Below are positions 3,080-25,828 of a DNA stretch of 54,052 nt, piece after piece. The first letter of the stretch is position 1; every line of letters begins with the position of its first letter. Position numbers and translations under genes: made by a program. Location: the UHGV virus genome UHGV-0210093; one strand, written 5' to 3'. The notes beneath the pieces are model-generated. The model ran no database searches, had not been told where the DNA came from, and was given only the letters and a program-made list of their open reading frames with translations. Source of the DNA: a virus.

Positions 3080-3084
3080 TTAAG

Positions 3085-3231
3085 ATGAAGTTCTTGGACA
3101 AAGAGACAGGATTGTATCTTTCTACTGACAATGCCGATAGTATTGCCAGTATGAAGAGCAATCCTAACAAATATGAAGAAGTAGCAGATAAGCCACAGAA
3201 GAAACAGCAGACAAGAAAAAAAGCTGAGTAA
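3085..3231 (+). CDS. small Lys-rich hypothetical protein (48 aa)
   Basis: ATG-to-TAA ORF filling the gap between capsid and connector genes. It is below the ORF-track length cutoff. Confidence 0.3.
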   Translation: MKFLDKETGLYLSTDNADSIASMKSNPNKYEEVADKPQKKQQTRKKAE

Positions 3232-3241
3232 GGAGATTCAC

Positions 3242-3718: not shown

Positions 3719-3863
3719 ATGGCTTAAGCGGTTAACATGCCGACATGAAAAATTAACATATTCTTCAACTTTCCTTGATGAGGTCGGAGACCATGAGTAC
3801 AAGACTCATCATGTGTGGAAGTGCAAAGAATGTGGAAAAGAATTCTATTAGGAGGGGATACCG

Positions 3864-4310: not shown

Positions 4311-4311
4311 T

Positions 4312-5263: not shown

Positions 5264-5278
5264 CGGAGGATAACAAAC

Positions 5279-5782: not shown

Positions 5783-5880
5783 CTGAAACGATGGTTTGAC
5801 ATCCGTGGAGACACAATATTAGACGTAAATGACGAAGAGATATACCTTATTGAAAAGACGATTTGAGAAAGGACGATACA

Positions 5881-6315
5881 ATGAGCAATAAATTAGCAAA
5901 ACCAATGGCAAACAAGATTGTAGTAGATGATGGTAGCAAGGTCTACACGATTGAGAACAAAAGAGGAAAGGTACTCGGCAAGTTCGAGTTCAGACCTACA
6001 GATACAAATATCGTGAAGAGATATGAGGAAGTGGTTGAATACTACAATTCATATCAGCTGCCAGAGAATCCAAGCGAAGCGGATATGAGAAAAGCTGAGG
6101 AAGATATTACAGGGAGAATCTCTTATCTTATCGGAGAAGATGCAAAAGAGACATTCTTCTCTATCCTCGGAGCATTCTCACCACTTGCAAATGGAGAACT
6201 GTACATGGAGAATGTTCTGTCCTCTATCGCAAAAGTGATTGAAAAGGAAATGAATATCCGCACAAAGAAGGTACAGAGTCGCATGAATAAGTATGTGGCT
6301 AAGTACCACAACTAA
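5881..6315 (+). CDS. tail assembly chaperone (gpG-like)
   Basis: GAAAGGA RBS before the ATG at 5881. Acidic ~144-aa protein immediately upstream of the tape measure gene; it overlaps the next ORF. Confidence 0.5.
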   Translation: MSNKLAKPMANKIVVDDGSKVYTIENKRGKVLGKFEFRPTDTNIVKRYEEVVEYYNSYQLPENPSEADMRKAEEDITGRISYLIGEDAKETFFSILGAFSPLANGELYMENVLSSIAKVIEKEMNIRTKKVQSRMNKYVAKYHN

Positions 6316-6316
6316 T

Positions 6317-6913
6317 ATGTATCCGTGGAAACTTCCTACATCTTTAGACGTTAATGGAAAGGAATATTCGATACGCTCTGATTTTAGAGTGATATTGGAT
6401 ATTCTTTCTGCTATGAATGATCCGGATATCTTCGAGCCTGGCATGACAGAAGAAGAGAAACAACAGGAGAAAACACTCACGATGCTTAGAATCCTCTATG
6501 TGGACTTTGATTCCATGCCACCTAAGGATTGGCAAGAAGCCTGTCAGAAAGCGTGTGAGTTCATCGATTGCGGTATCAAAAATGATGGCAAACCTAGACC
6601 TAGAACAATGGACTGGGAACAGGATGCACCAATCATCATACCGGCTGTGAATAAGGTGAATAACGCTGAAGTGCGAGCTACAGACTATATGCACTGGTGG
6701 ACGTTCTTCGGACTCTATATGGAGATTGGAGAAAGTACCTTCTCAACTGTAGTCAGCATCCGAGACAAGAAGAGAAAAGGTAAGAAGTTAGAGAAGTGGG
6801 AACAGGAATACTACAAAAATAATAAGTCTATTGTGGACTTACATCAGAAGAGTACAGAGAGAAGTGACGAAGAGAAAGCTGAACTCCGAGAACTCTTCGG
6901 ATTGAATAAATAA
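6317..6913 (+). CDS. Gp15-like tail chaperone partner protein
   Basis: ORF is open from 6293 in the +1 frame relative to the chaperone and overlaps its last 23 nt. No own RBS, so it may be made by frameshift or translational coupling. Confidence 0.4.
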   Translation: MYPWKLPTSLDVNGKEYSIRSDFRVILDILSAMNDPDIFEPGMTEEEKQQEKTLTMLRILYVDFDSMPPKDWQEACQKACEFIDCGIKNDGKPRPRTMDWEQDAPIIIPAVNKVNNAEVRATDYMHWWTFFGLYMEIGESTFSTVVSIRDKKRKGKKLEKWEQEYYKNNKSIVDLHQKSTERSDEEKAELRELFGLNK

Positions 6914-6972
6914 CCGGATATCGAAAGAGATATTCGCTGACCGCAGATAATTAGCGGTGGAAAGGATTAGAA

Positions 6973-9900: not shown

Positions 9901-10071
9901 GAAGCACCTGAAAGCCTTATCCGTAAGATTGTAAGGGAAGAAACTGGTAACAGCTCACGCAAGATTGAAGTGCCGGTATATCTGAACCGTAGACAGATTG
10001 CGAAGGCCGTACTTGAAGAAGGAAAGAACATGAGAACACAGACGGGAAGAAATCCGTTTGAAATGGCTTAG
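6973..10071 (+). CDS. tail tape measure protein
   Basis: 1032 aa with a coiled-coil N-terminus, a Gly/Ser-rich linker (GGSGGGGGGAGGGSGSG), hydrophobic segments, and repeated W/G-rich C-terminal motifs. Position after the chaperones fits. Confidence 0.85.
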   Translation: MAQADGYIIIDTEINADGMKAGSKEVEAAVRRMANSVDDIGNKAKTALNKQADAFAKLNNEYAAQEQKVSELKKKIAEYGEQKVPTDEYREIQTQISQATQKLNSLKAAQDKFLSTGGKQSSSSFKRMQYDIEELENEIKYAKAELADLEASGGAFTLGSKTQEAAASMRTLQAEERKLADMNNRLHTSYNSVKGSIDDYKQKLMSAAPAQQKMANASEKASKSITKTGKAANSARFGIGRMLKMSLLMSIAFRAFSAAISAIKDGFTNLAQYSSSTNNSISMLWGSLETLKNSLATAFAPILSVVAPILSKFIDMLSTAASYVSMFFSFLSGKSTYTKAIAVQKDYAGSLKDTASGAKDAADGTKEAAEAAEEYLSPLDDINKMDKQDSGSDSGGSGGGGGGAGGGSGSGPLFEEVPIDNKFASLLDSVLDKLKQIRDIFMDGFWDGLGDYKPVLEELKKDLKSIGEHIKDIFTDKNVQEAAKRFAILFIYNMGKTVGSFVSIGLTIAANVVGGIESYLEENTDRIKKWLVRMFDLGSEISIIVGNLSATIAEIFQQTFGSQTAQNITGNIIGIFTTAFGEIILLATSFAKDVMDAIATPIIENKDKIIEAINNTLKPIEEITQSIEDFVQKLADKLTELYDEHIGPFINDVGSGLSEIGGTLLDTYNQYIAPILDQWAQKFDEVLNGPVGDAIDHIIDEIGRLIDGLNWLWNNVLIPLIQWLIENVIPVLAPIVAWIGDTLLSIVASVTGMADSVLKQLDGIIQFLTGVFTGDWAQALSGILLYVEGFKQNINIIFNFIKNQILDPLSKWLDGVFKVDWVKDFGVIGDYMNAWLANIQNIVAAVKQAFSGIVDFVNGVLSGDWQQAWDGIKNIFGGAWNGMLAIIKSPINGIIGLMNGLLRAAQIMQNGVANALNKMNISVPSWVTSLTGVSSIGFHISKWSAPHIPYLAQGAVIPPNKEFMAVLGDQKSGNNIEAPESLIRKIVREETGNSSRKIEVPVYLNRRQIAKAVLEEGKNMRTQTGRNPFEMA

Positions 10072-10081
10072 GAGGTAGAAT

Positions 10082-10465
10082 ATGGCACAGAACTATTTAA
10101 AATTCGGCTCATTCACACCACCAGATGTGGATGAGGACGGATATCAAATTTCATTCGCTACTACCTCTACAGAAAACTCAGGAAGAACCATGAGGGGAAA
10201 TATGAAAAACTCCCCTCTCTTCACAATAGAAGCTTATGAGCTGAAATGGAGTGACATTAAGGTAAGTGACGCAAGCAAAATTCTCAAAGAGGTTATGGGA
10301 AAGAGCGGATTTGACTTTTTCCACCTTAACATTTATGAGGATAAATGGGAAACCAAAAGGTTTTATGCAGCAAACTTTAATGCTCCATGTGTAAGTTTAG
10401 TAGAAGGCGAAGAGAAACTGGATGAGCTGAGTTTTCAAGTAACATCGGAAAATCCAGTGTTATAG
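10082..10465 (+). CDS. small tail component (distal-tail-like)
   Basis: GGAGGTAG RBS. 127 aa between the tape measure gene and the giant tail gene. Confidence 0.35.
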   Translation: MAQNYLKFGSFTPPDVDEDGYQISFATTSTENSGRTMRGNMKNSPLFTIEAYELKWSDIKVSDASKILKEVMGKSGFDFFHLNIYEDKWETKRFYAANFNAPCVSLVEGEEKLDELSFQVTSENPVL

Positions 10466-10523
10466 ATTTCACCGGATATCGTTAGAGATATTCGCTGACC
10501 TTAAATAGTTAGAGGTAGAATTA

Positions 10524-13500
10524 ATGAAGAATGTAAGCAACGAATTCAAAAACATCATAAAGTCAGGCGGTCCGTTCTATGCTTACGCATCGATTACACT
10601 GAAAAACGGTGAGAAACTATATCTTGATTCGGATAACGATTTCTTCATAAGCGGTAATGGATACGCAGAAGACGGAGGAGATGGATTCCCACTGGGATCC
10701 GCTCTCTCCAAGTCCGTTACGCTTGTCATTGATAACATCGATGAGAGATTTTCCAAGTATGATTTTTACTATGCACAGATTTCACTCTTCACTGAAGCTG
10801 ACATCGAAAGTAGAAGCTATGATGCATGGAGAGATGTGAAAGGTGAGGAAATTCTCGATGTCAATGGCAACACGATTATGCTGACGAAATCAAGAATCGA
10901 GAGATTGAACGAGGGTACATTTACAGTACTTGAGCCAACAGCGGTTGGAGATACGATAGAACTTGTAGGTTATGATTCAATGTACAAAGCAGATGCAGAC
11001 TTCACGTCTAAGCTATCTTATCCAACAACAGCTGGGCAGCTTCTAAGAGAAGCGTGTAGTACATGTAACATCATGCTTGGAAGTCCGAAGTTTAACAATG
11101 ACGATTTCGTGATTGAACAGGCTCCGGAAAAAGTGACTTGCCGAGAAGTAATCGGATATATAGCAATGCTTTCCGTTGGTAATGCTGTGATTCAGAACGG
11201 AACACTTGTTATTAAGAGTTACGACTTTTCTGCAATATCGAAGATTACAAATAGGGATGACTTAGTGGAAGATGCTGGCTATAGCATTTTGATGGACTAT
11301 CAGTCAGATCCGGACATTAGCACAGATCCTGTTGTAATCACTGGAATTGCGACCACAAAGAAAGTAGAAAACGAGAGTACAATCTTAATAAGAGGTACAG
11401 ATGATTATGCACTTGAAATCACGAATCCTCTTATTGAAGGACATGAAGATGATGCAATCAATCTGATTGGAGATGTATTGATCGGAGTTAAGCTGAGAGG
11501 TTTTAGTGGAGAATTCTTCCCTGATCCAACGATCGAATTCATGGATCTGGCTTGCGTGGTAGATAGGAAAGACAAAGTTTATCCAACATTTATCACATCC
11601 CATGAGTTCAGCTATCTCGGAAGCAGTTCGTTCTCTTGCGGAATCAAAGATCCGGAACGTCAAAAGAGTACTTATTACAGCGAAGCTAAAAAGGTATATG
11701 AAAAAGCTAATAAGGAAATCAAGCAGAATAAGACGGACTTTGAAGCAGCTGTCGAGAATCTGAATAAGACGCTTGAGAATGCATCTGGAATGTATTCGAC
11801 AGAATCACCACAGCCGGACGGAAGTATGATTACATACATCCATGATAAGCCGACAGTAGAAGAGTCCAAGAATGTAATCAAAGTTACATCTGAAGCCATT
11901 GGTATATCAAATGATGGCGGTAAGACATATCCTTACGGCTTATTCCTTACCGGTGATCTGATAACAAGAATCTTGTATGCTATCGGCATAAATGCTGATT
12001 ATATCAATTCTGGTTCTCTTACCGTAAAAGATAAGAATGGAAACATTACTTTCTACGCTGACACAGAGACAGGGCGAGTAACTATCAATGCAGAGTCCAT
12101 AAGCATCACAGGAAAGTCTGTAGAAGATATCTCAAACGGAATCGTAGATGATTTTGTCACAAATATCTATAAGAATGACATTGATGAGATTAAAGAGTCT
12201 GTCCGGAATAAGATAGAGACATGGTATCAAGATAGTGATCCGTCTGTAAACTGGAAAGACAAGTCCGAACATGAAGGTGACCTGTGGAAGGACACAAGAG
12301 ATAACAAAGAGTATATCTATCGTTCCGGCAAATGGGAAGAAATGAATGTGCCGGATGAAGTGTTTGACGAGATTGACAGCAAAGCTCAAATCTTCATCAA
12401 TGAGCCGACAACTCCTTATAAGTTGGGAGACTTGTGGTTTGAGTCTGAAACAAAAGAGTTGCTTACTTGTATCAAGAGCAGAGCAACAGGCTCATGCGTA
12501 AAGGCAGACTGGGAGAAACGTACCAAGTATACGGACGATTCCACAGTGAACACATTTATCACAAAGATTTACGAATCGGACATTGATGATATCCGGAATC
12601 AAATCGACCAAAAGATTGAAACTTGGTATCAGAGTACAGATCCATCCGTAAACTGGGGTGGAACTGTTGAAATGGCATGGTGCGATGTCAATGGCGAATC
12701 AATCCTTGACGTAAACGGAAATGAAATCATCTTGCTATACGAAGAGTCTAAGGCTGAACATGAAGGAGACTTGTGGAAAGACCTGTCTACGAACGATGAG
12801 TATATTTATCGTGGCGGTCAGTGGATGAAGATGCAAGTGCCGGACGAAGTCTTTGACGAGATTGATGGCAAGGCACAGATATTCATTAACACTCCTGTTC
12901 CGCCGTATCGTGTTGGTGACTTATGGTTTGATGCAGATACACAGGAGCTTCTCACTTGCGTGGAAAGCAGAGATAAAGGAAGCTGTGTAAAGTCCGACTG
13001 GCAGAAGAAAACCAAGTACACTGACGATAGCGGACTGAATACCTTCATTTCTGCGGTATACGATCCGAAGATTGCGGAATTACAGAGTCAGATTGATGGA
13101 CAGATTGAAACATGGTTCTATGACCACGAACCTAGCTTACAGAACGAACCGGCTGTGAATTGGACAACCAACGAGCAGAGAAAAGACCACGAAGGTGATC
13201 TCTTCTTCTGGAAGTCCACTGGATATTCCTACCGATTCTTACAGGACGGAGCGGTTTGGAAGTGGCAGATCGTACAGGATACAGATATTTCAAAAGCACT
13301 TGCAGCTGCGGAGAAAGCACAGGATACAGCAGATCATAAGCGTAGAGTCTTTGTAGTGACTCCACAGCCACCTTACGACATAGGTGACCTTTGGGTACAG
13401 GGTGATGATGGTGACATCATGCGTTGCTGTGTTGCAAGAAGTGAATCGGCTTCTTTCTCGGCATCAGACTGGGAAAAGGCATCAAAGTACACGGACGATA

Positions 13501-15962
13501 CAAGAGCCAATGAGGTACAGAAAGAGCTGGAAACAGTCAATAAGGACTTGCAGAATCAGATTGATGGCAAGATTGAGACATACAATCAATCTGCTGATCC
13601 GGCAGCTTCATGGACAACAGCTGAACTGAAAGCAAAGCATACTGGCGACTTATGGTACAACTCAAAAACCGAAGAAACAATGCGTTGGAACGGTTCAGCG
13701 TGGTCAAAGTTAAGTGATGCGGATGCGAAAGCTGCAAAGAACCTTGCTGTCACAAAGAAACGTGTATTCAGCGTAACTCCTTATCCACCTTATGATACAG
13801 ATGATTTATGGGTGCAAGGTACAAACGGTGACTTGATGCGATGCGTGACCTCATGTCAGAGCGGAGAGTATGTCGCATCTGATTGGGTCAAGGCTACCAA
13901 GTACACAGACGATTCCGCAATCAATAACTTTGTTAAGAATACTTATGCTGCCGACCTTGAGAATATCAAGAATCAGATTGATCAGAAGATAGAAACTTGG
14001 TTCCAACCTACTGACCCGTCACTTAATTGGACTGGAAAAGAAACACAGCCTCTTTGCGATATAAACGGGAATGACATCTTAGATGTTAGTGGAAAAAATA
14101 TCACAATCACTGTGGAAACCGAAAAAGCAACTCATGAGGGTGACTTGTGGAAGAATTCCAAAACTGGTGATGAATACATCTACAGAAGCGGAAATTGGGA
14201 AAAAATGCCAGTTCCAGACTCTGTATTCGATGAGATTGACGGTAAAGCGCAGATTTTCTCAACACAGCCAAAGCCACCGTATAGCGTGGATGATTTGTAT
14301 TTCACTGGAAATGATATCCTTGTCTGCCTAAAGGACAGAGAAACTGGTGAGTATGTAGCAAGTGATTGGCAGAAGAAAGATAATTATACAGACGATTCTA
14401 CAGTAACGGACTTCATCGAAAACATTTATGATCCGAAAATTGAAGATATCCAAAATCAGATTGATGGAAAGATTGATACGTACTATTGCGATTATGAGCC
14501 TGCGAATTCAAACCATCCAGCATCTGAGTGGACTACAGCTTACGAAAGACAGAAGCATGTTGGTGACCTCTTCTTTTGGAAGAACAAAGGTTTCACTTAC
14601 CGCTATATGAAAGTCGATACATCTTATCAGTGGGTGAGAGTGAAAGATGCAGACATCGTATCTGCGATGGAAACAGCATCAAAGGCTCAAGATACCGCAG
14701 ACGGTAAGAGAAGAAACTTTATTACAACTCCTGTGCCACCTTACGATGTTGGAGATTTGTGGACACAAGGAAACGACGGTGACTTGATGCGATGCCGAAC
14801 CGCAAGAACTAGTGGTAACTTTGTTTCTTCTGATTGGGTAAAGGCTACAAAGTATACTGATGATTCTGCGGTCGATAAGCTAAATAAATCTCTGACTTCC
14901 GAAGAAGTGTTTAACAGACTTACTGATAACGGGAAGAAACAAGGGATATATATGCAAGGCGATCAGTTGTATATCAACTTCTCTTATGGCAAGGGCGGTA
15001 CACTTACATTGGGAGGTGTAAACAATGAAAATGGCTCAATACAGATACTAGATGCCATAGGAGCGGAAGTTGGTAAATGGGATAAAGATGGACTGAACAT
15101 CCAAAAAGGCTCGATTTATGGAAGCACGATATATTTAGATAAAGAAAAAGCGTATGCGCTCATCGTTGGCCGCAACAATTCGAAAGAAATATTCACTATC
15201 GGAAGCATGGGGATGCATATTGATAATACTAATATGGGACTTCTCGCATCAGACAGTATGGTTGTTGACCTTATGGGCGGTTGGTTTCATGGTTTGAGAA
15301 TGAAAGCATCTAATAATGGAAGGGGATACGGTTCTTCAATTTCCCCGGAATGCTTCTCTATTGGATGGGCTGAGGATTTACAAGGATGGTCTGATGCAAT
15401 GTCAACAGTAAAATCGTACACATTTAGCATTAGCGAGAACTCAACAGGTTGCCTTTCAATTAGAATTAATGGAAGTAGTTATATTAATGATTATGTAGAT
15501 ATAAGCCCAAGAGAAATAAAAACAACTGGAACTAAAAACCGTGTTGTTCCAACAGAGAATTATTCGAACAGACTTCAATATTGCTACGAAACAGCTTCGC
15601 CAATGTTTGGAGACATCGGTGAAGGAATTACTGATGAGAACGGTGAATGTATCGTTGAAATCGGAGATATCTTCACGGAAACTGTAACAACACGCATTGA
15701 GTACCAGGTATTCTTGCAGAAAGAAGGGAAAGGAGATTTGTGGATTGAAAAGAAGGAAGAGAATTACTTCATTGTGCACGGAACTCCGAATCTGAAATTT
15801 GCATGGGAACTGAAAGCAAAACAGAAAGATTACGAATATGTAAATCTTGAGGAAGATGTTGACAGGGAAGAAAAATTACCTGAAAGCCCTGAGAACATAT
15901 TAAACGCGGAACTAGAAACCTTGATTAAGGAACAGGAGGAACTTTTAAATGAAACAGCTTAG
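10524..15962 (+). CDS. giant tail / receptor-binding-region protein: Tal-like (tail-tip) N-terminal part plus about 8 tandem ~120-aa repeats
   Basis: 1812 aa. The N-terminal ~370 aa resemble prophage tail endopeptidase-type proteins. The central part repeats a module with the pattern IETW..DPS.NW..HEGDLWK..YIYR.G.W..M.VPD.VFDEIDGKAQIF..P.PPY..GDLW..C...DW.K.TKYTDDS. Confidence 0.7.
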   Translation: MKNVSNEFKNIIKSGGPFYAYASITLKNGEKLYLDSDNDFFISGNGYAEDGGDGFPLGSALSKSVTLVIDNIDERFSKYDFYYAQISLFTEADIESRSYDAWRDVKGEEILDVNGNTIMLTKSRIERLNEGTFTVLEPTAVGDTIELVGYDSMYKADADFTSKLSYPTTAGQLLREACSTCNIMLGSPKFNNDDFVIEQAPEKVTCREVIGYIAMLSVGNAVIQNGTLVIKSYDFSAISKITNRDDLVEDAGYSILMDYQSDPDISTDPVVITGIATTKKVENESTILIRGTDDYALEITNPLIEGHEDDAINLIGDVLIGVKLRGFSGEFFPDPTIEFMDLACVVDRKDKVYPTFITSHEFSYLGSSSFSCGIKDPERQKSTYYSEAKKVYEKANKEIKQNKTDFEAAVENLNKTLENASGMYSTESPQPDGSMITYIHDKPTVEESKNVIKVTSEAIGISNDGGKTYPYGLFLTGDLITRILYAIGINADYINSGSLTVKDKNGNITFYADTETGRVTINAESISITGKSVEDISNGIVDDFVTNIYKNDIDEIKESVRNKIETWYQDSDPSVNWKDKSEHEGDLWKDTRDNKEYIYRSGKWEEMNVPDEVFDEIDSKAQIFINEPTTPYKLGDLWFESETKELLTCIKSRATGSCVKADWEKRTKYTDDSTVNTFITKIYESDIDDIRNQIDQKIETWYQSTDPSVNWGGTVEMAWCDVNGESILDVNGNEIILLYEESKAEHEGDLWKDLSTNDEYIYRGGQWMKMQVPDEVFDEIDGKAQIFINTPVPPYRVGDLWFDADTQELLTCVESRDKGSCVKSDWQKKTKYTDDSGLNTFISAVYDPKIAELQSQIDGQIETWFYDHEPSLQNEPAVNWTTNEQRKDHEGDLFFWKSTGYSYRFLQDGAVWKWQIVQDTDISKALAAAEKAQDTADHKRRVFVVTPQPPYDIGDLWVQGDDGDIMRCCVARSESASFSASDWEKASKYTDDTRANEVQKELETVNKDLQNQIDGKIETYNQSADPAASWTTAELKAKHTGDLWYNSKTEETMRWNGSAWSKLSDADAKAAKNLAVTKKRVFSVTPYPPYDTDDLWVQGTNGDLMRCVTSCQSGEYVASDWVKATKYTDDSAINNFVKNTYAADLENIKNQIDQKIETWFQPTDPSLNWTGKETQPLCDINGNDILDVSGKNITITVETEKATHEGDLWKNSKTGDEYIYRSGNWEKMPVPDSVFDEIDGKAQIFSTQPKPPYSVDDLYFTGNDILVCLKDRETGEYVASDWQKKDNYTDDSTVTDFIENIYDPKIEDIQNQIDGKIDTYYCDYEPANSNHPASEWTTAYERQKHVGDLFFWKNKGFTYRYMKVDTSYQWVRVKDADIVSAMETASKAQDTADGKRRNFITTPVPPYDVGDLWTQGNDGDLMRCRTARTSGNFVSSDWVKATKYTDDSAVDKLNKSLTSEEVFNRLTDNGKKQGIYMQGDQLYINFSYGKGGTLTLGGVNNENGSIQILDAIGAEVGKWDKDGLNIQKGSIYGSTIYLDKEKAYALIVGRNNSKEIFTIGSMGMHIDNTNMGLLASDSMVVDLMGGWFHGLRMKASNNGRGYGSSISPECFSIGWAEDLQGWSDAMSTVKSYTFSISENSTGCLSIRINGSSYINDYVDISPREIKTTGTKNRVVPTENYSNRLQYCYETASPMFGDIGEGITDENGECIVEIGDIFTETVTTRIEYQVFLQKEGKGDLWIEKKEENYFIVHGTPNLKFAWELKAKQKDYEYVNLEEDVDREEKLPESPENILNAELETLIKEQEELLNETA

Positions 15963-16149
15963 TGGTTTTTCAATTTTAAATGTAAATGGAATGGACAGAG
16001 CTACATTTACTTATGACGAGATTGACGAGAGTGGAAATCTTGTATCGCACAACAATAAGAAATCGTTCTATATCGTTGATGCTGAACTCAAAACTCATGT
16101 AGATGCGATTAGAAAATTTATCACAGTAAACAAGGTTGACGAGGCGTAA
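15949..16149 (+). CDS. hypothetical protein (66 aa) overlapping the giant tail gene stop
   Basis: ATG overlaps the TAG stop of the giant tail gene, suggesting translational coupling. Confidence 0.3.
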   Translation: MKQLSGFSILNVNGMDRATFTYDEIDESGNLVSHNNKKSFYIVDAELKTHVDAIRKFITVNKVDEA

Positions 16150-16206
16150 GGGCATGAATAATGCTCTTACCCTTTTAATAAATGATTCAATAAAGGAGAA
16201 TTAATC

Positions 16207-16701
16207 ATGGAATGGACAAAGTACACAACTAAAGAAGCACTGAAAGACAATGATGAGTTAATGATTCTCGACAAGGATGCAAATGCAAACAAGCGTACAC
16301 TGATGGACAAGGTATGGGATTATGTTGTCGATAAGATGACTACGGCAGTTATCGCAAAGTTAGGAACAACTAACAAGACTTTGATTGGGGCAGTTAATGA
16401 ATTAAATAGCAACCGCTTTAAAATTAGAAGCTACATTATAGATAATACAACTGCATTTAAAATTACAAAAGTCGTAAAATGGAAAAATTCAAATGACCAT
16501 ATGGTAGCTTTACTACTTGCCGATGTTAATCGTTATGCCGACATATACATAATTGGAAGGTTATCAGGAGTAAATATACTGTCAAAAACATCTAATGTTG
16601 ATACACCACAAATTGATAGTTCTTCAAGTACATTAACAGTTACACTTGGAGCCTGGAGTTCAGCACTTCTGATTTGTTTTGAATCCGTAACGATAAGTTA
16701 A
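16207..16701 (+). CDS. expressed copy of the shufflon-like variable tail/adhesin gene: constant N-terminus (~65 aa) + in-frame repeat encoding LNSN + current variable cassette V0
   Basis: Strong AAAGGAGA RBS. The gene reads through repeat L0 (16402-16413) in the same frame (xNSN) that every silent cassette uses. It stops on a TAA created inside repeat L1. Confidence 0.6.
   Translation: MEWTKYTTKEALKDNDELMILDKDANANKRTLMDKVWDYVVDKMTTAVIAKLGTTNKTLIGAVNELNSNRFKIRSYIIDNTTAFKITKVVKWKNSNDHMVALLLADVNRYADIYIIGRLSGVNILSKTSNVDTPQIDSSSSTLTVTLGAWSSALLICFESVTIS
16402..16413 (+). repeat. shufflon repeat L0 (TTAAATAGCAAC), inside the expressed gene
   Basis: Matches the 12-bp family consensus ATAAAATAGCAA; translated as LNSN. 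Confidence 0.6.
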
Positions 16702-16709
16702 ATAGCAAT
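16698..16709 (+). repeat. shufflon repeat L1 (TTAAATAGCAAT)
   Basis: Supplies the TAA stop of the expressed gene. The next cassette begins in frame through it. Confidence 0.6.
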
Positions 16710-16942
16710 CTTGGAAAGAAGAATACCATTGACGTTGGTGAAGTGTATTTGAATGAAAACGGTTATTGTCTCCTTACGGATAGATTTCCAGAACTATCAA
16801 ATGCGAATCTTATAACCATTGCTTACTACGAGACAATTGAACCAACGGCAGCCATATCAGTATATTGCTCATCTTATAATGCCTATATATTTGGCTCAAA
16901 AAACACGCATATAACTGGGTTAAAAATAATTTATTGGAAATG

Positions 16943-16954
16943 ATAAAATAGCAA
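16943..16954 (+). repeat. shufflon repeat L2 (ATAAAATAGCAA)
   Basis: Exact consensus. Identical to the reverse complement of R2 and R7. Confidence 0.6.
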
Positions 16955-17240
16955 TAAACAAAATGCTGCTATGTTAGTTGAAAACACTTCTAATCTTTGT
17001 GAATATATGCTTTCAAACTGTAGAAGAACTGGCATATGTTTTTATGCGATACCAAGCACAGTAAAAGTAGAAAATGGTTCTCCTGACGGAAATGGTGGTT
17101 TTGGAATTGCATGCAAAAGTACATCTGAAGATTATGGTATGCTTATTGTTTTTTCATATGGTAAAGCTGTGTATATGAAAATTAAATCAATAACATGGGA
17201 TAATTGGAAGAAAGTAAAATTTATCGAATGATTATTCTAT

Positions 17241-17252
17241 ATAAAATAGTTT
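17241..17252 (+). repeat. degenerate terminal repeat L3 (ATAAAATAGTTT)
   Basis: 9 of 12 positions match; ends the plus-strand cassette run. Confidence 0.35.
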
Positions 17253-17429
17253 CTAATATGTTTCGTCTTTTGTATTTTTCAAACATACACTCCCTATTTC
17301 ATCACCATCACACATTTTCCGAAAACATCATTTTTGCATATCTGAAAACACAGACTTCTCATAAAAAATGGTATAGCAAACAAGCCATCGAGAAATGGCT
17401 TTAAAAAATCAATATTGAATCAAGTCAGC

Positions 17430-18440
17430 TTACGCTATATATCGTCTGAAAGATGCTTTTACATTAGATTCACTTACAGTGACGTACATCATGGTTGTAT
17501 CCGGCTTTTGGTGTCCGGCATAAGCCTGAATCTCTTGTAGCGGTATTCCTCTACTTCCAGCATCCGTGAGTAGGGTTCTTCGGAACTTATGCGGATGCGC
17601 ATGAATATCTGTTTTTTTACCAAGTTTCGACAGCATTGACCATATAGCTTCCTTTCCCATCCGGTTGTGTGGCTTTCGGTTCGATACAAACAACGCCGGG
17701 TTCATATCATCCCTTGACATAAGGTACTTCTTGAGATGATATGCGCATTCATCCGTCAGATACACTTTCCTCTCTTTCTTTCCCTTTTCTCCGTAAATGA
17801 TTACTTCCTTGTTTCCCCAATCAATATCACTGCGGTTGAGTGCTACAACTTCACCGATACGTGCTGCTGTGGAGTACAGGAACTCCATAATTGCCACATC
17901 TCTCTGACTCTTAGCATTGCAACGTAGATGCTCCCTCTCTGCGGAGGTAAACGGCTTTTTGATGCGCTGTGGCACTTTCATGTGCTTGATGCGTCTCATT
18001 GGATTTTTGCTTATGAATCCCTCGTCAGAGAGCCATCCAAAGAATGATGAAAAGTATCTTCTAAGTGTGTCCATGTACGAGATAGACACTTTCCTTGTCT
18101 CTTGATACATGGCAAGGTAGTAGCGGATATCGTTTGTGGTTATGTCCTCAAATCTCTTGTTGAGATAGTTGACTAGCTTGGTTACACAGTCCACATAGCG
18201 GTCAATCGTACCTTGTGAGCAGTTCTCCAAGCGTTTACTTGCAATGAACAATTTGAGAATCTTATCCCAGTGAGATTGACTTGTTACCAATGAGGTACAT
18301 TCCTCTTGAAGTTTGACTCCGTGGAACGAGATATACAACACATTCTCCAATTTGTGCATCTGTTCCTCGGTCAGTTCCTCTTGCATCATGTTTACAACAT
18401 TTTTGATTATCATGTTAATGTCTTTTTCCATAAAAAACAC
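17430..18440 (-). CDS. tyrosine recombinase (XerD/Rci-like), candidate shufflon invertase
   Basis: 336 aa with catalytic-looking residues: ARIGE (Arg), HPHKFRRT (HxxR), GHQKPDTTMMYV (His and Tyr). It sits between the oppositely oriented repeat arrays. Confidence 0.8.
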   Translation of the reverse strand: MFFMEKDINMIIKNVVNMMQEELTEEQMHKLENVLYISFHGVKLQEECTSLVTSQSHWDKILKLFIASKRLENCSQGTIDRYVDCVTKLVNYLNKRFEDITTNDIRYYLAMYQETRKVSISYMDTLRRYFSSFFGWLSDEGFISKNPMRRIKHMKVPQRIKKPFTSAEREHLRCNAKSQRDVAIMEFLYSTAARIGEVVALNRSDIDWGNKEVIIYGEKGKKERKVYLTDECAYHLKKYLMSRDDMNPALFVSNRKPHNRMGKEAIWSMLSKLGKKTDIHAHPHKFRRTLLTDAGSRGIPLQEIQAYAGHQKPDTTMMYVTVSESNVKASFRRYIA

Positions 18441-18536
18441 CCCTTTCTAAGCCAATTATGACTCAAAAAGAGGTGAAATTAAATGCTTTATTTCGGTTCA
18501 TGAAATAGGGAGTGTATATGGTTAAAAATCACGCTT

Positions 18537-18548
18537 TTGTTATTTTAT
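18537..18548 (-). repeat. degenerate repeat R-1 (TTGTTATTTTAT)
   Basis: One mismatch to consensus; next to the recombinase promoter region. Confidence 0.35.
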
Positions 18549-18809
18549 GATACGGTTGCAATCCAAGAAATGTTTGGTTTTGCACCTGATGTGGTACAAG
18601 CGTTTGAAAGCTTTATTGTAAAGCCATTTTTTGTTACAGAAGCGTAATCTACAAACGCAGTCAAATCACCATATGTAGTAATGCTTGAGCCACTTTTCAA
18701 AGTACACACGACTGTCGGTATGGTATTGAATGGCTTTTTAAAAACGACATCCACTGCTTGCGTACTGTTTGCTGCAATTCCTACAGCTCCAGTTGTACCA
18801 GATTGTGTC

Positions 18810-18821
18810 TTGCTATTTAAT
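18810..18821 (-). repeat. shufflon repeat R0 (TTGCTATTTAAT)
   Basis: 12-bp family member in inverted orientation relative to the L repeats. Confidence 0.55.
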
Positions 18822-19145
18822 GACTATTGTAGTTGTCTAGGCAATCCACCGATTTTAAGCACTGTTAATTTTACATAACAACTTGATTCACTTGATGGAA
18901 CATCTACGCTATATGTTCCGTTGCCATTGGCAACCGAAAATGACAGCAGCTTGTTTGTTGATGTACTCCATAATTCGTGTCTTGTATCGACATTATCACT
19001 CACATTTGCAAACGTAGTTTTTTGTCCAATTTTCACTGGAGCATGAATTATACAATATGGTTCGTAACTTATAATACTCCCATTACTGTTAATATATTTA
19101 CTGTTTTCAATTTTAAGTGGTATTGCGAATTTCAAAACCAAACTC

Positions 19146-19157
19146 TTGCTATTTTAT
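19146..19157 (-). repeat. shufflon repeat R1 (TTGCTATTTTAT)
   Basis: Exact consensus. Confidence 0.6.
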
Positions 19158-19440
19158 TAGAAACGCATTTATATCGTGTACATCTTTTTGCTGTATTGTA
19201 ACATCGCATGTTAGTACTTTCTCAGACACAATATATTTGAAATTCGATGCGTTACTAGCATTAGCAGAAATTAAATTTGCGGAATACGTACTTCCATATC
19301 CAATTAAAACACATGCATAAACAGAACTTGATACTGCAAATGTCAAACAAATAATACCGAATTCTGTATTATCGATAGAAAATTGTGCAGATAATTTATT
19401 GTTTTCAATTGTTATATTGACTGGTATCTGCTTAAATTTA

Positions 19441-19452
19441 TTGCTATTTTAT
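19441..19452 (-). repeat. shufflon repeat R2 (TTGCTATTTTAT)
   Basis: Exact consensus. Confidence 0.6.
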
Positions 19453-19764
19453 ATAAAAATAATCATGCCAGTAGGCTTGACGTTGGCAATTGATTTCGTT
19501 GTTATTGTTACAATTAATTGTTTTCTTTCCCAAGAAAATGAAAACATATTATCTGAAAAAGTCTTATTTAACGAGAATGCAATATTCTTCTCGGATTTAT
19601 AAGCATGTCCAATGGCTGTTATGCAGTAATCATCTTGTATATGACCGCAAGCCATTATAACAATATAGTGTCTATCTGATTCGATTTTTGATAAATCTAT
19701 TTTTGTTTCACATTCACCATTCATTATGGCATCTATGTAATATCTGAAAATCGCCTTGTTTTGA

Positions 19765-19776
19765 TTGCTATTTAAT
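19765..19776 (-). repeat. shufflon repeat R3 (TTGCTATTTAAT)
   Basis: Its reverse complement is identical to L1 (TTAAATAGCAATC). Confidence 0.6.
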
Positions 19777-20017
19777 CTTTAGCGTTATAATTTTGAAAGT
19801 AAAAGCCCCTGTTGGACTGTTGTTTACAAAGCATAAAGACCAATTATTTGTTCCTTCTGTACCACTCACACCTCGTGAGATAGTGTATATCCATCCATTT
19901 CTATCTATTGATTGGATTGAAATAATCATGTATTCATCTGCATTCACACCTAAATCATACGTATCTTTTTCAGATTCGGCAGTGATAACTTTGTTAACAG
20001 ATTCGATTATAGGAATA

Positions 20018-20029
20018 TTGCTATTTTAT
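20018..20029 (-). repeat. shufflon repeat R4 (TTGCTATTTTAT)
   Basis: Exact consensus. Confidence 0.6.
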
Positions 20030-20314
20030 AACTCGGTAACACTACCATCATTAGTTATGAGAATGAACGATGACCATGCACGCATAGGCATACTTATCGT
20101 ATTACCACTTTTTGATGGTTGAGGAGAATCTGCATTTCCAATACTTATTTGTTTGATTCCAGAACTAGCACCTACGGCATATATGTTTGTATATCTATTT
20201 TGATCTACGATAAGTATTCCAGCAAAGTGACCACTAAATGTTAACCGTACAGTTTTTTCTTCACTATCAACAAAACCAGAATAATATCGCAGACCATTTG
20301 ATTGTAGTATCGTG

Positions 20315-20327
20315 TTGCTATTTTTAT
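20315..20327 (-). repeat. shufflon repeat R5 (TTGCTATTTTTAT, one extra T)
   Basis: Consensus with a 1-nt insertion. Confidence 0.5.
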
Positions 20328-20645
20328 GAAAACATTTACCTTAAAACATACGTCAAAAAAATGCGTAATTTGCCTTTAACTGTATGTTTTCCGAACACTT
20401 TTATATTTCCATGCGTGTCTACAACGAGCTGAACAAAAGCTTTCGGATCATAAATATACCCAATGGTATATATATCTGATGCTGGTTTGTATCTTTCCGT
20501 AATTGTACATAATATCATATCTTCTTTAATATCAATAATATTTGTAACTATATTAACTGTCATAACACCGTAGTTAGCAATAAAATTTACGTTGTTTATA
20601 TTAGTATTCTCAGAGAAGAATTCGCCAACAGTATTTTTTATTGTC

Positions 20646-20657
20646 TTGCTATTTTAT
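20646..20657 (-). repeat. shufflon repeat R6 (TTGCTATTTTAT)
   Basis: Exact consensus. Confidence 0.6.
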
Positions 20658-20897
20658 TGTCAATACCAACACCGAATTTGTAAACCTTGTATTTCTGTAT
20701 TAGGAGACCCGAAAACATAAGCACCACCGTTTTCACCACGATATATATTTATAGCTGAAATTGGTGTTATTAATAAATAATAAGAGATTTCTACTATTTT
20801 TGTATAGATCGGATATTTTTCATTATCATTGATGCGATAATATCCCGATTCATCTAGACTGATAGTGCCTAAATCAATAACAACATATTGTAATTTA

Positions 20898-20909
20898 TTG
20901 CTATTTTAT
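20898..20909 (-). repeat. shufflon repeat R7 (TTGCTATTTTAT)
   Basis: Exact consensus. Confidence 0.6.
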
Positions 20910-21216
20910 AGAAAAGGCTGGCTTGTTTATAGAATATGATATTAATGCAGTACCAGTAACCCACGAACCGATTCTTACTGAAATTACAGTGTTGTTAACT
21001 GATGGTGTTACTTCTTCACCATAAATTGTGCTTATTTTTATTTCTGTAATGTTTTTTCCGTCCTCTGTGTACACACTAATATAAATCATTCGTTTTTTGT
21101 CCATTAAAAGAGCTTGTACAGAGTTGGATCTATCGCCTAAATTAATTTCAATGGTTGTGCGATTAGATGTATTATAATTGGTTGAATAAGAATTTACATT
21201 TCCGTTTAATAACTTA

Positions 21217-21228
21217 TTGCTATTTTAC
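21217..21228 (-). repeat. shufflon repeat R8 (TTGCTATTTTAC)
   Basis: One mismatch to consensus. Confidence 0.55.
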
Positions 21229-21486
21229 TGAAGAGCTGTCCAAGAACACCACTTGCCAGCACCGTCAGTTGTTCGAAACCACACAGAACATTTTTTGCTA
21301 TTCGATACTCGTCTTTCGAAAAATACGCATAATCTACTAGTTTTTCCATCACTTGCCATAATGCAAAAACCACCAGTACCTCCTGGAGTGTCTTTTGCAT
21401 TTACGCCTACATAGGAAAAACCGTAAGGAGTATCGTTTATGGACGTCATCACTATTGGCAAATTTTTATATTCGCTCATTGCACTA

Positions 21487-21498
21487 TTGCTATTTTAT
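21487..21498 (-). repeat. shufflon repeat R9 (TTGCTATTTTAT)
   Basis: Exact consensus. Confidence 0.6.
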
Positions 21499-21750
21499 TT
21501 CCAATCATTCCACACTTCATCCGTTGAATTCCATATTCTAGTTTTTACAACCAAAGTGTATAAATACTGAATCGCCACTTGATACTTAATGTCATCCGAA
21601 AGTGAACCAATACAGAAAATAAACCATATTGAATCGTCGTTTTTTGGTTTATGCAAAGCTGTACGAAACGCTATAGCAGATTCTCCAACAGGGAGATCAT
21701 TGCAATCTTTATAAATGCCTGAAGAATAAATCTGTTTTGAGCATATTTTA

Positions 21751-21762
21751 TTGCTATTTTAT
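21751..21762 (-). repeat. shufflon repeat R10 (TTGCTATTTTAT)
   Basis: Exact consensus. Confidence 0.6.
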
Positions 21763-21997
21763 GGTTTTCCACCCGGTAGATGAAACGTATTGAGCAAATG
21801 CCACTGTATGTTCAGCATTGGCTATTCCTATAAAATTGGCACTTCCGTTATTAACCATGACAATTCCCCATGCCCAGCCACCGAATAATCCGCCTATAGT
21901 TCCCCAAACAGGAAGAAACTCGCATTGGTATTTATTATTCTCAGTGAAAAAATCGTTGATATTATCATCTAAGCGTTTTGCTTTACAGAGCATCTTC

Positions 21998-22009
21998 TTG
22001 CTATTTTAT
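21998..22009 (-). repeat. shufflon repeat R11 (TTGCTATTTTAT)
   Basis: Exact consensus. Confidence 0.6.
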
Positions 22010-22291
22010 TCCTTAATTTCTTTAATCGTTCCTTTCGCTATTGAACCACCCAGTATGCAAGCGTAATGCGTGTATTTAGATTGGAATGTAATTCGCATTG
22101 TAAAATCATTTATTTCAATTTTGACTTGACCGACCGTGGTGTTTGTCGTTTGTGATACGGGTATGTTATATAGTTGTAAGTCTTGATTGATTGAGAGTAT
22201 AATAACTCCATAAAAAGTGGCTTTTGACTTCACCGTTATTTCTATACCTTTTACATCAATTCCACCAATTACTTTTATACTACCAAAAGTT

Positions 22292-22303
22292 TTGCTATTT
22301 CAT
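22292..22303 (-). repeat. shufflon repeat R12 (TTGCTATTTCAT)
   Basis: One mismatch; last repeat before the lysis genes. Confidence 0.5.
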
Positions 22304-24556: not shown

Positions 24557-25660
24557 TTATGTTTCGTGTTGCATTTCGTGTTGCATAGACTCAAAATAGT
24601 TGATTGCAATCTTATTCATTTTATCTTCCATGTCCGGAAGAGTGTGACGGTAGACTTCTTTCAGCACCGAATCATTTCCCCATCCACCAGATTGCATGAT
24701 ATACGCATCTGGTATTCCTAGCGCATGTTGAACAGAAGCGTTGTAATGCCTTAAGTCGTGGAATCGGAAGTGAGGTATCTCTAATTTCTTAAGGAGATTT
24801 CCAAATGATGTTGTTAATGTATTCGGATTCATGTCTACAGTGTCGGTTGAAAGTTCCAAGAACTTCTCGATTACGAATGATGGATAATTCACATATCTGT
24901 CACCAGCATAAGACTTAGGTGCTTTCACAATCCATTCGCCCTCATCATTCATAACCATTGTTTTTGTAACGTGTATCGTGTGATTCTTGATGTCGGACTT
25001 CTGTAATGCACAGATCTCACCTCTTCGCATAGCTCCAAACGCTGCGAGGAGAATTGGCACTTCCATGATAGTTCCTTCTGATGCACGAACAATCTTCTTA
25101 ATGTCCACTTCTGTAGGAATGCAAATGTTGCTCCTGAGTTTTTTTGGAAGAGTGATATTGATTACAATTCCCGGACGAAATCTTTTCATTACCGCGCTGA
25201 TCAGTCCATTCATGTCACGAACAGACTTAGGTGACAGCTCTGTAGATGCCTTATTAATCACCTTTTGAATTACGCTTTGTGTGATTTCCTTTAGCTGATA
25301 CTCTTTGAGCGGTACCATGCAATTACGTTGCATACTCTTGTACTTTCTGATGCTGGACGGCGAGAGGACAGCGGACCGTTCCTGGATGTACTTTTCTAGT
25401 GCATCACCGAAAGTCATTTGTACTTCTTCATCTTTCTTGATTTCTTTGTTATCTGCCCATTCAGCAGCCATTGCTTCAGCTTTTCTTTTTCCTCTTGCCG
25501 ATGGATCATCACAAGTGAAAGACTTATAGATTCTTTTCTGTTTCTGTTTCTTCGTTTTCGGATCAATAACAGGTTTTCCGTTTTTATCTAAGACAATTTC
25601 ATAGTGGCTGAATACCTGACATCTCCAGGATCCGGAAGGTAACTTCTTAGCTGTTGCCAT
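24557..25660 (-). CDS. int: phage integrase (tyrosine recombinase)
   Basis: AAAGGAGA RBS before MATAKKLPSGSWRC, an arm-binding-type N-terminus. Catalytic-looking R (AMRRGE), HDLRHY (HxxR) and a C-terminal Y. Adjacent to the attP candidate. Confidence 0.85.
   Translation of the reverse strand: MATAKKLPSGSWRCQVFSHYEIVLDKNGKPVIDPKTKKQKQKRIYKSFTCDDPSARGKRKAEAMAAEWADNKEIKKDEEVQMTFGDALEKYIQERSAVLSPSSIRKYKSMQRNCMVPLKEYQLKEITQSVIQKVINKASTELSPKSVRDMNGLISAVMKRFRPGIVINITLPKKLRSNICIPTEVDIKKIVRASEGTIMEVPILLAAFGAMRRGEICALQKSDIKNHTIHVTKTMVMNDEGEWIVKAPKSYAGDRYVNYPSFVIEKFLELSTDTVDMNPNTLTTSFGNLLKKLEIPHFRFHDLRHYNASVQHALGIPDAYIMQSGGWGNDSVLKEVYRHTLPDMEDKMNKIAINYFESMQHEMQHET
24562..24587 (+). repeat. attP arm-type direct repeat, copy 2
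   Basis: Identical 24-bp tandem TTTCGTGTTGCA x2; overlaps the 3' end of the integrase gene. Confidence 0.45.
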
Positions 25661-25828
25661 ATAATCATCTCCTTTTAAGTATAAAAATAACAGCCATACA
25701 ATAGAACAACAGTTCTGATTGATTGACTGCTCCGAAGATGATACAATATTACTGTTCATATAATTCGCACTGCTCTTCGGAGTTGTGTATCAACCGTTCC
25801 TGCGCCAACAGGAGCGGTTTTATTTTAT

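Follow-up and report, generated by a model that had tools for sequence, protein, structure and literature searches.

A putative cassette-switching shufflon with an internal tyrosine recombinase in a temperate gut phage of Mediterraneibacter faecis

Expressed gene, cassettes and cassette sites

The virus genome UHGV-0210093 was analysed as a stretch of 54,052 nt (the window), and the locus described here occupies its positions 16207-22303. It contains one expressed gene and two arrays of promoterless, start-less cassettes that converge on the gene of a tyrosine recombinase. A first-pass annotation of the same sequence had proposed that inversions between the repeats of the left (L) and the right (R) array fuse one constant N-terminus to alternative C-terminal cassettes, and this central claim is supported by rearranged contigs that are otherwise nearly identical to the window. 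We conclude that the locus is very probably a recombinase-driven, cassette-switching shufflon with a single expression site.

As had been proposed, only one unit of the locus, the gene at 16207-16701, has a ribosome-binding site (RBS, AAGGAG) and an ATG. Its product, which is also present in identical form in public assemblies, joins a constant N-terminal module (the head) to cassette A. The gene and those sites that do not stand at the start of a minus-strand cassette are as follows, with the terminal site added.

16207..16701, plus strand: expressed gene, 164 aa, constant head and cassette A
16207..16404, plus strand: constant N-terminal module, 66 aa, ending in ...GAVNEL
16401..16412, plus strand: site L0, ATTAAATAGCAA, in the expressed gene, read as L-N-S-N; crossover point of the expression site
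16697..16708, plus strand: site L1, holding the TAA stop codon of the expressed gene
16943..16954, plus strand: site L2, ATAAAATAGCAA
17241..17252, plus strand: degenerate site, ATAAAATAGTTT, followed by a 3-codon stub
18537..18548, minus strand: degenerate site, TTGTTATTTTAT, with an 18-codon stub
22292..22303, minus strand: terminal site, TTGCTATTTCAT, the fixed right boundary of the shufflon

The conserved site reads A-T-[A/T]-A-AATAGCAA-[T/G/C]-A, and conservation ends there. When the window was searched with TTGCTATTTTAT at up to 2 mismatches, 27 matches were found, compared with 11.7 +/- 3.9 in shuffled sequences (0 of 100 shuffles reached 27), and 18 of the 27 fell within 16401-22303. 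The exact 8-mer AATAGCAA has 21 copies in the 54 kb, 17 of them in the 6-kb stretch, where 16 mark cassette boundaries and one is internal to a cassette (21295). This motif search bears out the earlier count of 18 repeats spaced at 246-336 nt, with 16 good and 2 degenerate copies, or 3(+1) against 13(+1) by orientation. Polarity is strict: the three sites left of the recombinase gene (16401, 16697 and 16943) are in the coding (plus) orientation, the 13 sites right of it, from 18810 to 22292, are all inverted, and a degenerate copy adjoins the recombinase on either side (17241 and 18537). Each cassette has one 12-nt site, and within one array every site is a direct repeat of the others. Beyond the terminal site at 22292-22303 we found no in-frame start codon and no RBS; the locus therefore has a single expression site. 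The idea that the repeat is a promoter or terminator motif was ruled out, as promoter-like sites numbered 31 against 32.3 expected and the repeats are read in the coding frame.

The frame AAT-AGC-AAx (N-S-N/K) runs open from each site until a few codons from the next one. The locus accordingly comprises 16 cassettes of 80-109 codons, 3 on the plus strand and 13 on the minus strand, plus the two stubs; the previous figure of about 17 cassettes was one too many.

16405..16701, plus strand: cassette A, 98 aa, currently expressed, paralogue of cassette I (20322)
16701..16943, plus strand: cassette B, 80 aa, silent, paralogue of cassette K (20905)
16947..17231, plus strand: cassette C, 94 aa, silent in the window, fused to the constant head in contig L004
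18545..18817, minus strand: cassette D, 90 aa, H-type lectin domain, silent in the window; site 18810-18821
18824..19153, minus strand: cassette E, 109 aa; site 19146-19157
19149..19448, minus strand: cassette F, 99 aa; site 19441-19452
19449..19772, minus strand: cassette G, 107 aa; site 19765-19776
19768..20025, minus strand: cassette H, 85 aa; site 20018-20029
20026..20322, minus strand: cassette I, 98 aa, paralogue of A; site 20315-20326
20336..20653, minus strand: cassette J, 105 aa; site 20646-20657
20660..20905, minus strand: cassette K, 81 aa, paralogue of B; site 20898-20909
20901..21224, minus strand: cassette L, 107 aa; site 21217-21228
21225..21494, minus strand: cassette M, 89 aa; site 21487-21498; contains the internal 8-mer at 21295
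21495..21758, minus strand: cassette N, 87 aa; site 21751-21762
21754..22005, minus strand: cassette O, 83 aa; site 21998-22009
22006..22299, minus strand: cassette P, 97 aa; its site is the terminal site 22292-22303

Two statements of the first-pass annotation about the cassettes hold in part. Each cassette was said to begin directly after a stop codon, and this is so for 11 of the 15 silent ones (10 TAA and 1 TGA), the others having TTA or AAA in this place. The cassettes were also said to be unrelated to one another, but A (16405) and the cassette at 20322 are 35% identical, and B (16701) clusters with the cassette at 20905 by BLASTP. When the 22 largest cassette families were compared by hhalign, only one weak pair (probability 40%) emerged out of 231, and because the profiles are shallow, a fold common to the families is neither shown nor excluded. 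Cassette D matches the H-type lectin family PF09458 of Pfam (4.6e-10).

Rearranged relatives and two classes of inversion site

With the recombinase as query, 72 viral contigs and 10 genome contigs were obtained. Among them, the metagenomic contigs L004, L005 and L006 match the window at 99.4-100% identity in each segment and differ from it in the order and orientation of the cassettes, and the neighbouring BLAST segments overlap by the repeat only. L005 is the exact product of a single inversion between L0 (16401) and the first right site, R1 (18810). There the head, with the tail genes before it, reads into cassette D (...AVNELNSKTQSGTTG...), forming an intact gene of head and H-type lectin, so that the predicted L0 x R1 product, the head fused to the cassette at 18817, was indeed found; cassette D is fused to the head in L011 and L013 as well. 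In L004 it is cassette C that follows the head. L006 carries 13 cassettes on one side of the recombinase and has only two adjacencies in common with the window, with about 12 new adjacencies against some 0.1-0.6% of substitutions. It also holds, at 2325-2590 in reverse-complement coordinates, a 17th cassette (NSNRLSAIRIGANSE...) that is absent from the window, and therefore cassette content, besides order, differs between near-identical phages. Another arrangement, of 10 cassettes, was found in a 95.5% identical prophage of a Mediterraneibacter faecis isolate (L086), where the head is fused to a homologue of cassette K.

In the junctions the flanks are swapped exactly at A-AATAGCAA, and every breakpoint lies in this 9-nt core. 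The left partner keeps the codon that precedes the core (TTA in the head and mostly TAA elsewhere), and the base that follows the core goes with the cassette. This limits the crossover to at most 9 nt, in keeping with the overlap region of 6-8 bp known for tyrosine recombinases. On the other hand, the internal 8-mer at 21295, which has no AT[A/T]A arm, was never a breakpoint; a functional site therefore comprises at least 12 nt. L0 was a breakpoint in L004, L005, L011, L013 and L086, and the right flank of the terminal site is identical in L004 and L006, where it is joined to other cassettes. All observed orders can be reached by inversions alone, each L x R event swapping the recombinase-proximal blocks of the two arrays. 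Assembler k-mers are longer than these repeats of 12 and 18 nt, and the junctions are therefore not assembly artefacts. The comparison with related phages that the first-pass annotation had suggested has thus yielded near-identical contigs that differ only by rearrangements with breakpoints in the repeat core. When the isoform proteins were looked up for coexistence in one sample, contigs from different samples were returned.

A separate observation concerns contig L089 (ERZ650940 NODE_711, positions 1-19311), which encodes the exact 164-aa protein of the window and in which two tail-gene modules face each other head to head on either side of the shufflon. The assembly has probably followed a path through inverted isoforms or two related phages here.

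Besides the cassette sites, the locus has a perfect inverted repeat of 18 nt that brackets the recombinase gene together with its 5' leader and its terminator.

17285..17302, no strand assigned: left arm of the 18-nt inverted repeat, ATACACTCCCTATTTCAT
18500..18517, no strand assigned: right arm of the 18-nt inverted repeat

In L006, L011, L013 and L086 the segment that carries the recombinase is inverted with respect to the flanking DNA, with breakpoints exactly at this repeat. The position of the repeat is conserved across relatives and both arms co-vary, the versions being ATACACTCCCTATTTCAT, ATACACCTCCCATTTCAT, AATCTCCGATTTC and TTTCCTCTTCCCATTT. It has ATRAAATAG in common with the cassette site, followed by GGGAG instead of CAA. 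By these comparisons, the arms of the 18-nt repeat form a second class of inversion sites, at which the recombinase gene flips by itself. Among the related loci, the recombinase gene is oriented with the late genes about as often as against them, and one possibility is that the flip resets the orientation of the gene relative to late transcription.

The cassette organization extends to the relatives. For 168 sites with a following site, taken from the window and 49 related loci, 98% opened, in the NSN frame, an ORF (open reading frame) that spans 85% or more of the distance to the next site, compared with 0% in either of the other two frames; cassettes out of frame in other isolates, which had been named beforehand as evidence against the system, are thus not what the relatives contain. 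The related loci hold 213 cassettes in 77 BLAST families, or 88 families when tails from database proteins are added, and profile-profile comparison detected almost no similarity between families. How the cassettes are split across the recombinase varies from locus to locus (6+7, 3+10, 8+2 and others).

In three relatives with a 99% identical recombinase (L008, L021 and L012), one cassette is a diversity-generating retroelement (DGR) of 3.1 kb.

L008 4597-7569: DGR cassette
L021 4597-7569: DGR cassette
L012 3604-6375: DGR cassette

The DGR cassette consists of a 277-aa C-terminal domain ending in the variable repeat (VR), an Avd-like ORF, the template repeat (TR) and a reverse transcriptase (PF00078, 9.6e-19), and TR differs from VR at TR adenines only. 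In L008 and L021 this cassette stands at the expression site. In L012 it is silent and adjoins the right flank, with a different VR and an identical reverse transcriptase. As judged from these genomes, inversion and retro-mutagenesis are nested on one gene in this phage family. No reverse transcriptase was detected in the window by tblastn with that of the relatives, and a literature search returned no paper that combines a shufflon with a DGR.

Recombinase and proposed mechanism

The recombinase gene lies within the invertible DNA and is accompanied by two hairpins.

17430..18440, minus strand: Xer-like tyrosine recombinase, putative invertase, within the invertible DNA
17382..17401, minus strand: terminator-like hairpin directly past the recombinase stop codon
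18438..18475, minus strand: 17-bp hairpin and U-run directly before the recombinase start codon, sequestering its RBS

The likely start of the recombinase is the ATG at 18431, which gives a protein of 333 aa. It matches the Pfam families Phage_integrase (1.7e-30) and SAM_4 (1.2e-13), and residues ~65-332, which comprise a SAM-like core-binding domain and the catalytic domain, can be aligned to Xer proteins; an arm-binding domain is lacking. The best NCBIfam models are XerA, XerC and XerD, XerA scoring 2.2e-58, under the cut-off of the family. Each of the catalytic residues (R, K, HxxR, H and Y) has its counterpart in an alignment with the XerA structure 4a8e. Domain searches of the window found only tyrosine-recombinase domains and no serine-recombinase domain.

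Relatives of the recombinase at 38-43% identity sit in other inversion systems, of the hsdS and the tail-fibre kind; the best plasmid matches, in the same range of identity, are hsdS-associated 'xerA' genes on Lactobacillales plasmids. In all 47 related loci the internal recombinase is embedded in the array. The core variant follows the recombinase group, AAATAGCAA going with the 99-100% identical enzymes and AAATAGTAA with the groups at 93-94% and 76%. Because its relatives lie in inversion systems and the core variant tracks its sequence group, the internal recombinase is the likely catalyst of the inversions.

Several of the more distant homologues lie in loci of some interest in themselves. 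On a human faecal 'phage' contig, a type I restriction-modification locus that is phase-variable (L003 4026-13057, MT835621.1) encloses the gene of a 39% identical recombinase. That locus has hsdM, split hsdS genes with inverted sites of 15-31 nt, and hsdR, and the same association occurs on Lactobacillales plasmids. In a prophage of a Lachnospiraceae metagenome-assembled genome (L077 7261-10584), a simpler tail-fibre inversion switch has a 39% identical recombinase between its sites. The switch contains a collagen-like fibre gene and two further alternative C-terminal ORFs, that is, three alternative C-termini, with four ~30-nt sites in alternating orientation, and holin and endolysin genes adjoin it. 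Near a 37% identical homologue (L055 370-6068) there are 14 copies of the motif TATAATGAA, all in one orientation and upstream of small genes; we considered a cassette array at this place and rejected it, as the motif looks like a promoter or start-context motif in a block of small early genes.

The hairpin before the recombinase gene has a minimum free energy of -27.4 kcal/mol (z = -4.3), and its stem is retained in the 76% recombinase group, where 3 pairs show compensatory changes. This suggests that expression of the recombinase is tightly limited by the hairpin, which may act as an attenuator or as a translational brake on the invertase.

We propose the following mechanism. The late operon would encode a small protein of the fibre or receptor-binding type, the first 66 residues of which are fixed and run into ...NEL-NS(N/K). 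The codons AAT-AGC-AA serve both as coding sequence and as part of the 12-nt site AT[A/T]A-AATAGCAA, with each cassette starting with a site in the same frame. The recombinase would pair a site of the left array with an inverted site of the right array and exchange strands in the invariant 8-9-nt core, upon which the DNA between the paired sites, the recombinase gene included, would invert. With L0 as the left partner, the head would be joined in frame to a new C-terminal domain. With any other left partner, silent cassettes would be re-sorted between the arrays, priming later switches. The 18-nt pair, which has a different centre, flips the recombinase gene alone. Expression of the recombinase would probably be kept low by the conserved RBS-burying hairpin. 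The result would be virions with different distal domains, at least one of them a lectin, and this would most likely alter which host surface glycans are bound. We infer that strand exchange needs identical centres, which would keep the two site classes separate; one enzyme would then serve both classes without cross-reaction, by analogy with the spacers of heterospecific lox sites.

A more elaborate form of this mechanism is conceivable, and we offer it only tentatively. The locus could be a two-tier, self-regulating machine in which one recombinase acts on the 12-nt cassette sites and on the 18-nt pair, and in which the flip of its gene against late-operon transcription, together with the RBS hairpin, sets the timing and rate of shuffling. 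The cassettes, even whole DGRs, would be exchangeable, and coarse inversion and fine retro-mutagenesis would act on the same virion protein.

Genome context, function and relation to known systems

The locus is set in a genome of the temperate siphophage type, as judged by domain and gene searches of the window. The features around the locus include the following.

6973-10071: tape measure protein
10524-15962: tail protein, 1812 aa
16146-16170, plus strand: terminator-like hairpin between a conserved 66-aa ORF and the RBS of the expressed gene
24557-25759: phage integrase, a separate tyrosine recombinase, 400 aa

The 1812-aa tail protein is followed by the conserved 66-aa ORF, the shufflon, an XhlA-like protein, a holin and a GH25 endolysin. 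Given the terminator-like hairpin at 16146-16170, the variable gene may be transcribed partly independently of the upstream tail genes. The 1812-aa protein itself has about 5 internal repeats of some 150-300 aa each, with the recurring pattern ...ETWYQ..DPS.NW...HEGDLW..YIYR.G.W..., and the number of repeats varies in relatives, where the tail proteins have 1531, 1693 or 1812 aa. Database proteins with the same N-terminus as the expressed gene are annotated from M. faecis, and the M. faecis isolate genome GCA_020538205.1 holds the prophage L086, 95.5% identical across 10 kb of tail genes, with host genes following the endolysin. The host is M. faecis, and the earlier view of a temperate phage of a Gram-positive bacterium, with tape measure, tail, holin, GH25 endolysin and integrase, was right. 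When the 6.5-kb locus was compared by blastn with 50,697 phage records, no match was found, and the named phages with the nearest relatives of the recombinase, phiCs5676-1 and phiCp-D, have no cassette array near that gene.

The constant head gives the first indication of what the variable protein does. Across 262 database proteins with this head, similarity stops sharply at NELNS[N/K]; the best 120 of the 262 carry more than 40 different C-terminal families, and 14-15 of the 16 cassettes of the window were seen joined to the head in some database protein. The head module occurs in 484 representative clusters, most of them proteins of ~150 aa with unrelated tails, and it also heads long proteins with collagen-like repeats, GDSL esterase, Big_2 or lectin domains. 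Its last motif, TTNKTxxGAINEL, recurs as a joint in long coiled fibres. An AlphaFold2 prediction run with 89 sequences gave a beta-hairpin and a long helix for the head, with a predicted local distance difference test score (pLDDT) of 87-91 over residues 11-50; a first run on the expressed protein, with 22 sequences, had given a pLDDT of 50. The head presumably is the virion-attachment or stalk part of the protein. Given the lectin cassette D, the fibre-type head module, the location of the gene between those for tail and lysis, and the Rin, Min and BV01-like systems as precedents, we consider it probable that the variable protein is a distal glycan-binding adhesin that sets adsorption specificity. 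The switching of cassettes would then amount to host-range switching.

A number of observations weigh against these conclusions. The evidence for inversion is a comparison of assemblies, and not of switching inside one population or lysogen. Contigs across a heterogeneous locus can be chimeric paths, which makes whole-array orders uncertain, though no single junction can be assembled without reads across it; L004 and L015, with 4 and 2 cassettes, arouse suspicion by their shortness, and L089 is palindrome-like. Conservation within the site covers only 12-14 nt, very little for a tyrosine recombinase whose sites have two binding arms, and the 9-mer core is found 4 more times elsewhere in the genome. 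Neither the recognition of so short a site nor the avoidance of deletion between the 13 direct repeats is accounted for by this reading. As to a receptor-binding role, the C-terminal domain had a pLDDT of only 50-66 in the 89-sequence run, Foldseek found nothing for the model of the expressed protein in the PDB at E <= 0.001, and sequence and profile searches of the PDB with this protein gave chance matches only. A fold search of BFVD returned uncharacterised homologues and weak fibre-like matches only, and searches of Pfam, PHROG and the PDB showed no similarity to the receptor-binding proteins (RBPs) of TP901-1 or 1358.

It could be that the shufflon is real and that the variable protein is not the determinant of host receptor choice, but an adhesin for mucus or other glycans, of the decoration or head-fibre kind, or that its variation, instead of changing host range, helps to evade antibodies or surface-exposed defences of the host. 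This would agree with the absence of detectable homology to characterised RBPs, with weak fold matches that include a head fibre as well as tail fibres, and with the small size of the protein (164 aa) next to the separate 1812-aa tail protein encoded just upstream. However, the gene lies in the tail-to-lysis interval, where the adhesion devices of Firmicutes siphophages are encoded, its head module is also found on esterase, collagen-like and lectin fibre proteins, and the known analogues Rin, Min and BV01-like all vary tail fibres or RBPs. We regard this alternative as rather unlikely.

It is far less probable that an activity in trans, be it the phage integrase (24557-25759), a host Xer recombinase or homologous recombination at the short repeats, brings about the rearrangements and that the internal recombinase serves some other role. 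The window does encode a second tyrosine recombinase, and the internal one is linked to the sites by sequence comparison and not biochemically. Nevertheless, its constant presence within the array in the 47 related loci, the match between its sequence groups and the core variant (C or T), its nearest relatives within other inversion systems and the confinement of the breakpoints to one 9-nt core all speak for it, and an identity of 9-12 nt is far below what RecA-type recombination requires. The internal tyrosine recombinase is therefore still the most plausible catalyst of the L/R inversions. A static array of decayed paralogues in tandem with a common motif, the rearrangements being assembly artefacts, has the least to recommend it: several contigs do end in or near the locus and some (palindrome-like L089, very short L004 and L015) are implausible as whole molecules, but repeats of 12 and 18 nt cannot cause false joins, the same junction classes recur in independent samples and in an isolate genome, all cassettes are open and in frame, and the polarity of the arrays, 3 against 13, is perfect.

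With inversion at the cassette sites as the preferred reading, the locus would be a shufflon in the general sense, having sites in both orientations, a recombinase, a constant 5' part, in-frame 3' parts and inversions seen by comparison of genomes. The closest known system is the Rin shufflon, the logic of which it follows when compared by published description. Rin was described in prophages of Bifidobacterium breve and B. longum (Mavrich et al. 2018, PMC6109161) and of Eggerthella lenta (PMC8778435), and consists of 5 cassettes of ~95-100 aa with an 11-bp asymmetric site 5' of each and a tyrosine invertase (PMC6109161). Both systems are phage-encoded in the tail module and combine a constant N-terminal part with promoterless C-terminal cassettes (80-109 aa here), each with a short asymmetric site (12 nt here, 11 bp in Rin). 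Both have a XerD-like tyrosine recombinase without arm-binding domain that is separate from the phage integrase; in both, inversions were deduced from differently arranged related genomes, and avoidance of deletion between direct sites poses the same question. Unlike Rin, in which the recombinase of the 5-cassette system lies at the far end of one array and outside the invertible DNA, the present locus has two converging arrays, 16-17 cassettes in all, between which the recombinase gene lies, and a second inverted repeat that flips the recombinase gene. Its constant part is 66 aa long (168 aa in Rin), its site has another sequence, its host is a Firmicute (Lachnospiraceae) and not an Actinobacterium, and it has no detectable similarity to the TP901-1 or 1358 RBP. 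The first-pass annotation knew of no previous annotation of this system. We found no paper describing this one, and a literature search returned no described Lachnospiraceae phage shufflon, but the kind has already been published as the phage 'Rin' shufflons.

The architecture of the locus had also been given as that of Rci/R64-type shufflons. The R64/IncI shufflon (Rci, sfx, pilV) has four segments, 19-bp sfx sites and 7 PilV tails, with rci outside the segments, and its sfx-type sites, made of a 7-bp core and a conserved 12-bp arm, are inverted on both sides of each segment. The present locus works like that shufflon in that a tyrosine recombinase makes multiple inversions at short asymmetric repeats, one N-terminus is joined to alternative adhesin C-termini, and inversion is strongly favoured over deletion. 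It differs in having one 12-nt site per cassette, direct repeats within an array, 16 tails and an internal recombinase, and this enzyme best matches XerA and XerC/D models and hsdS-type invertases, not Rci, its nearest relatives being hsdS-shuffling and tail-fibre invertases. The locus is thus probably not a member of the Rci/R64 family, being set apart by profile matches and site layout rather than by a direct alignment with Rci.

Other systems are similar in part. Min of p15B, Gin of Mu and Cin of P1 likewise switch the C-termini of phage tail fibres by site-specific inversion, which changes host range in those phages, and Min is a multi-site shufflon; these use serine invertases, Fis-dependent enhancers and 2 to ~6 alternatives, in contrast to the tyrosine recombinase here. 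A tail-fibre shufflon of a BV01-like Phocaeicola vulgatus phage, described in a 2026 preprint, has three cassettes in 1.7 kb and six variants (PMC13596623). It is like the present one a gut temperate phage system, with a recombinase-flanked multi-cassette region over the tail-fibre gene's distal end, short directional motifs (10 bp there) and configurations that vary between samples. It is unlike it in that here there are 16 cassettes in 6 kb, a host of another phylum and an internal, flippable recombinase. In the Mycoplasma switches (M. pulmonis vsa/HvsR and M. agalactiae vpma/Xer1), silent 5'-truncated genes and one promoter-bearing expression site are joined by Xer-like inversion at a short site. 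The switching logic is the same, with the recombinases compared by description only, whereas the Mycoplasma products are cellular lipoproteins and not a virion protein, and whole genes carry the repeats in their 5' region. Type I hsdS inversion loci, where the nearest recombinase relatives (38-43% identity) were found, also have the recombinase gene between inverted half-genes; what they vary, through 2-4 sites of 15-31 nt, is the HsdS specificity subunit and not a phage structural gene. Finally, the window is unlike a DGR in having no reverse transcriptase, though L008, L012 and L021 do carry a DGR as a cassette.

The system is not unprecedented, but stands out by its scale and architecture, in a prevalent and little-studied group of gut phages. 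To our knowledge, its 16-17 stored distal domains would exceed by far every cassette repertoire so far reported for phage shufflons (5 in Rin, 3 in the BV01-like phage, a handful in Min), and close relatives draw on a pool of at least 77 unrelated domain families. The short site, the bias to inversion only and the site pair that flips the recombinase gene are tractable questions for tyrosine-recombinase enzymology. If the adhesin function proposed above is right, the stored cassettes make up a natural catalogue of small modules for glycan binding, all on one scaffold, which could serve the engineering of phage host range. Phages of gut Firmicutes are abundant and hard to culture, and the rules of their host range are poorly known. 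Shufflon loci break assemblies, and host-prediction tools that rely on tail genes see the expressed cassette only; a single metagenomic 'viral species' may be equal to many adsorption phenotypes.

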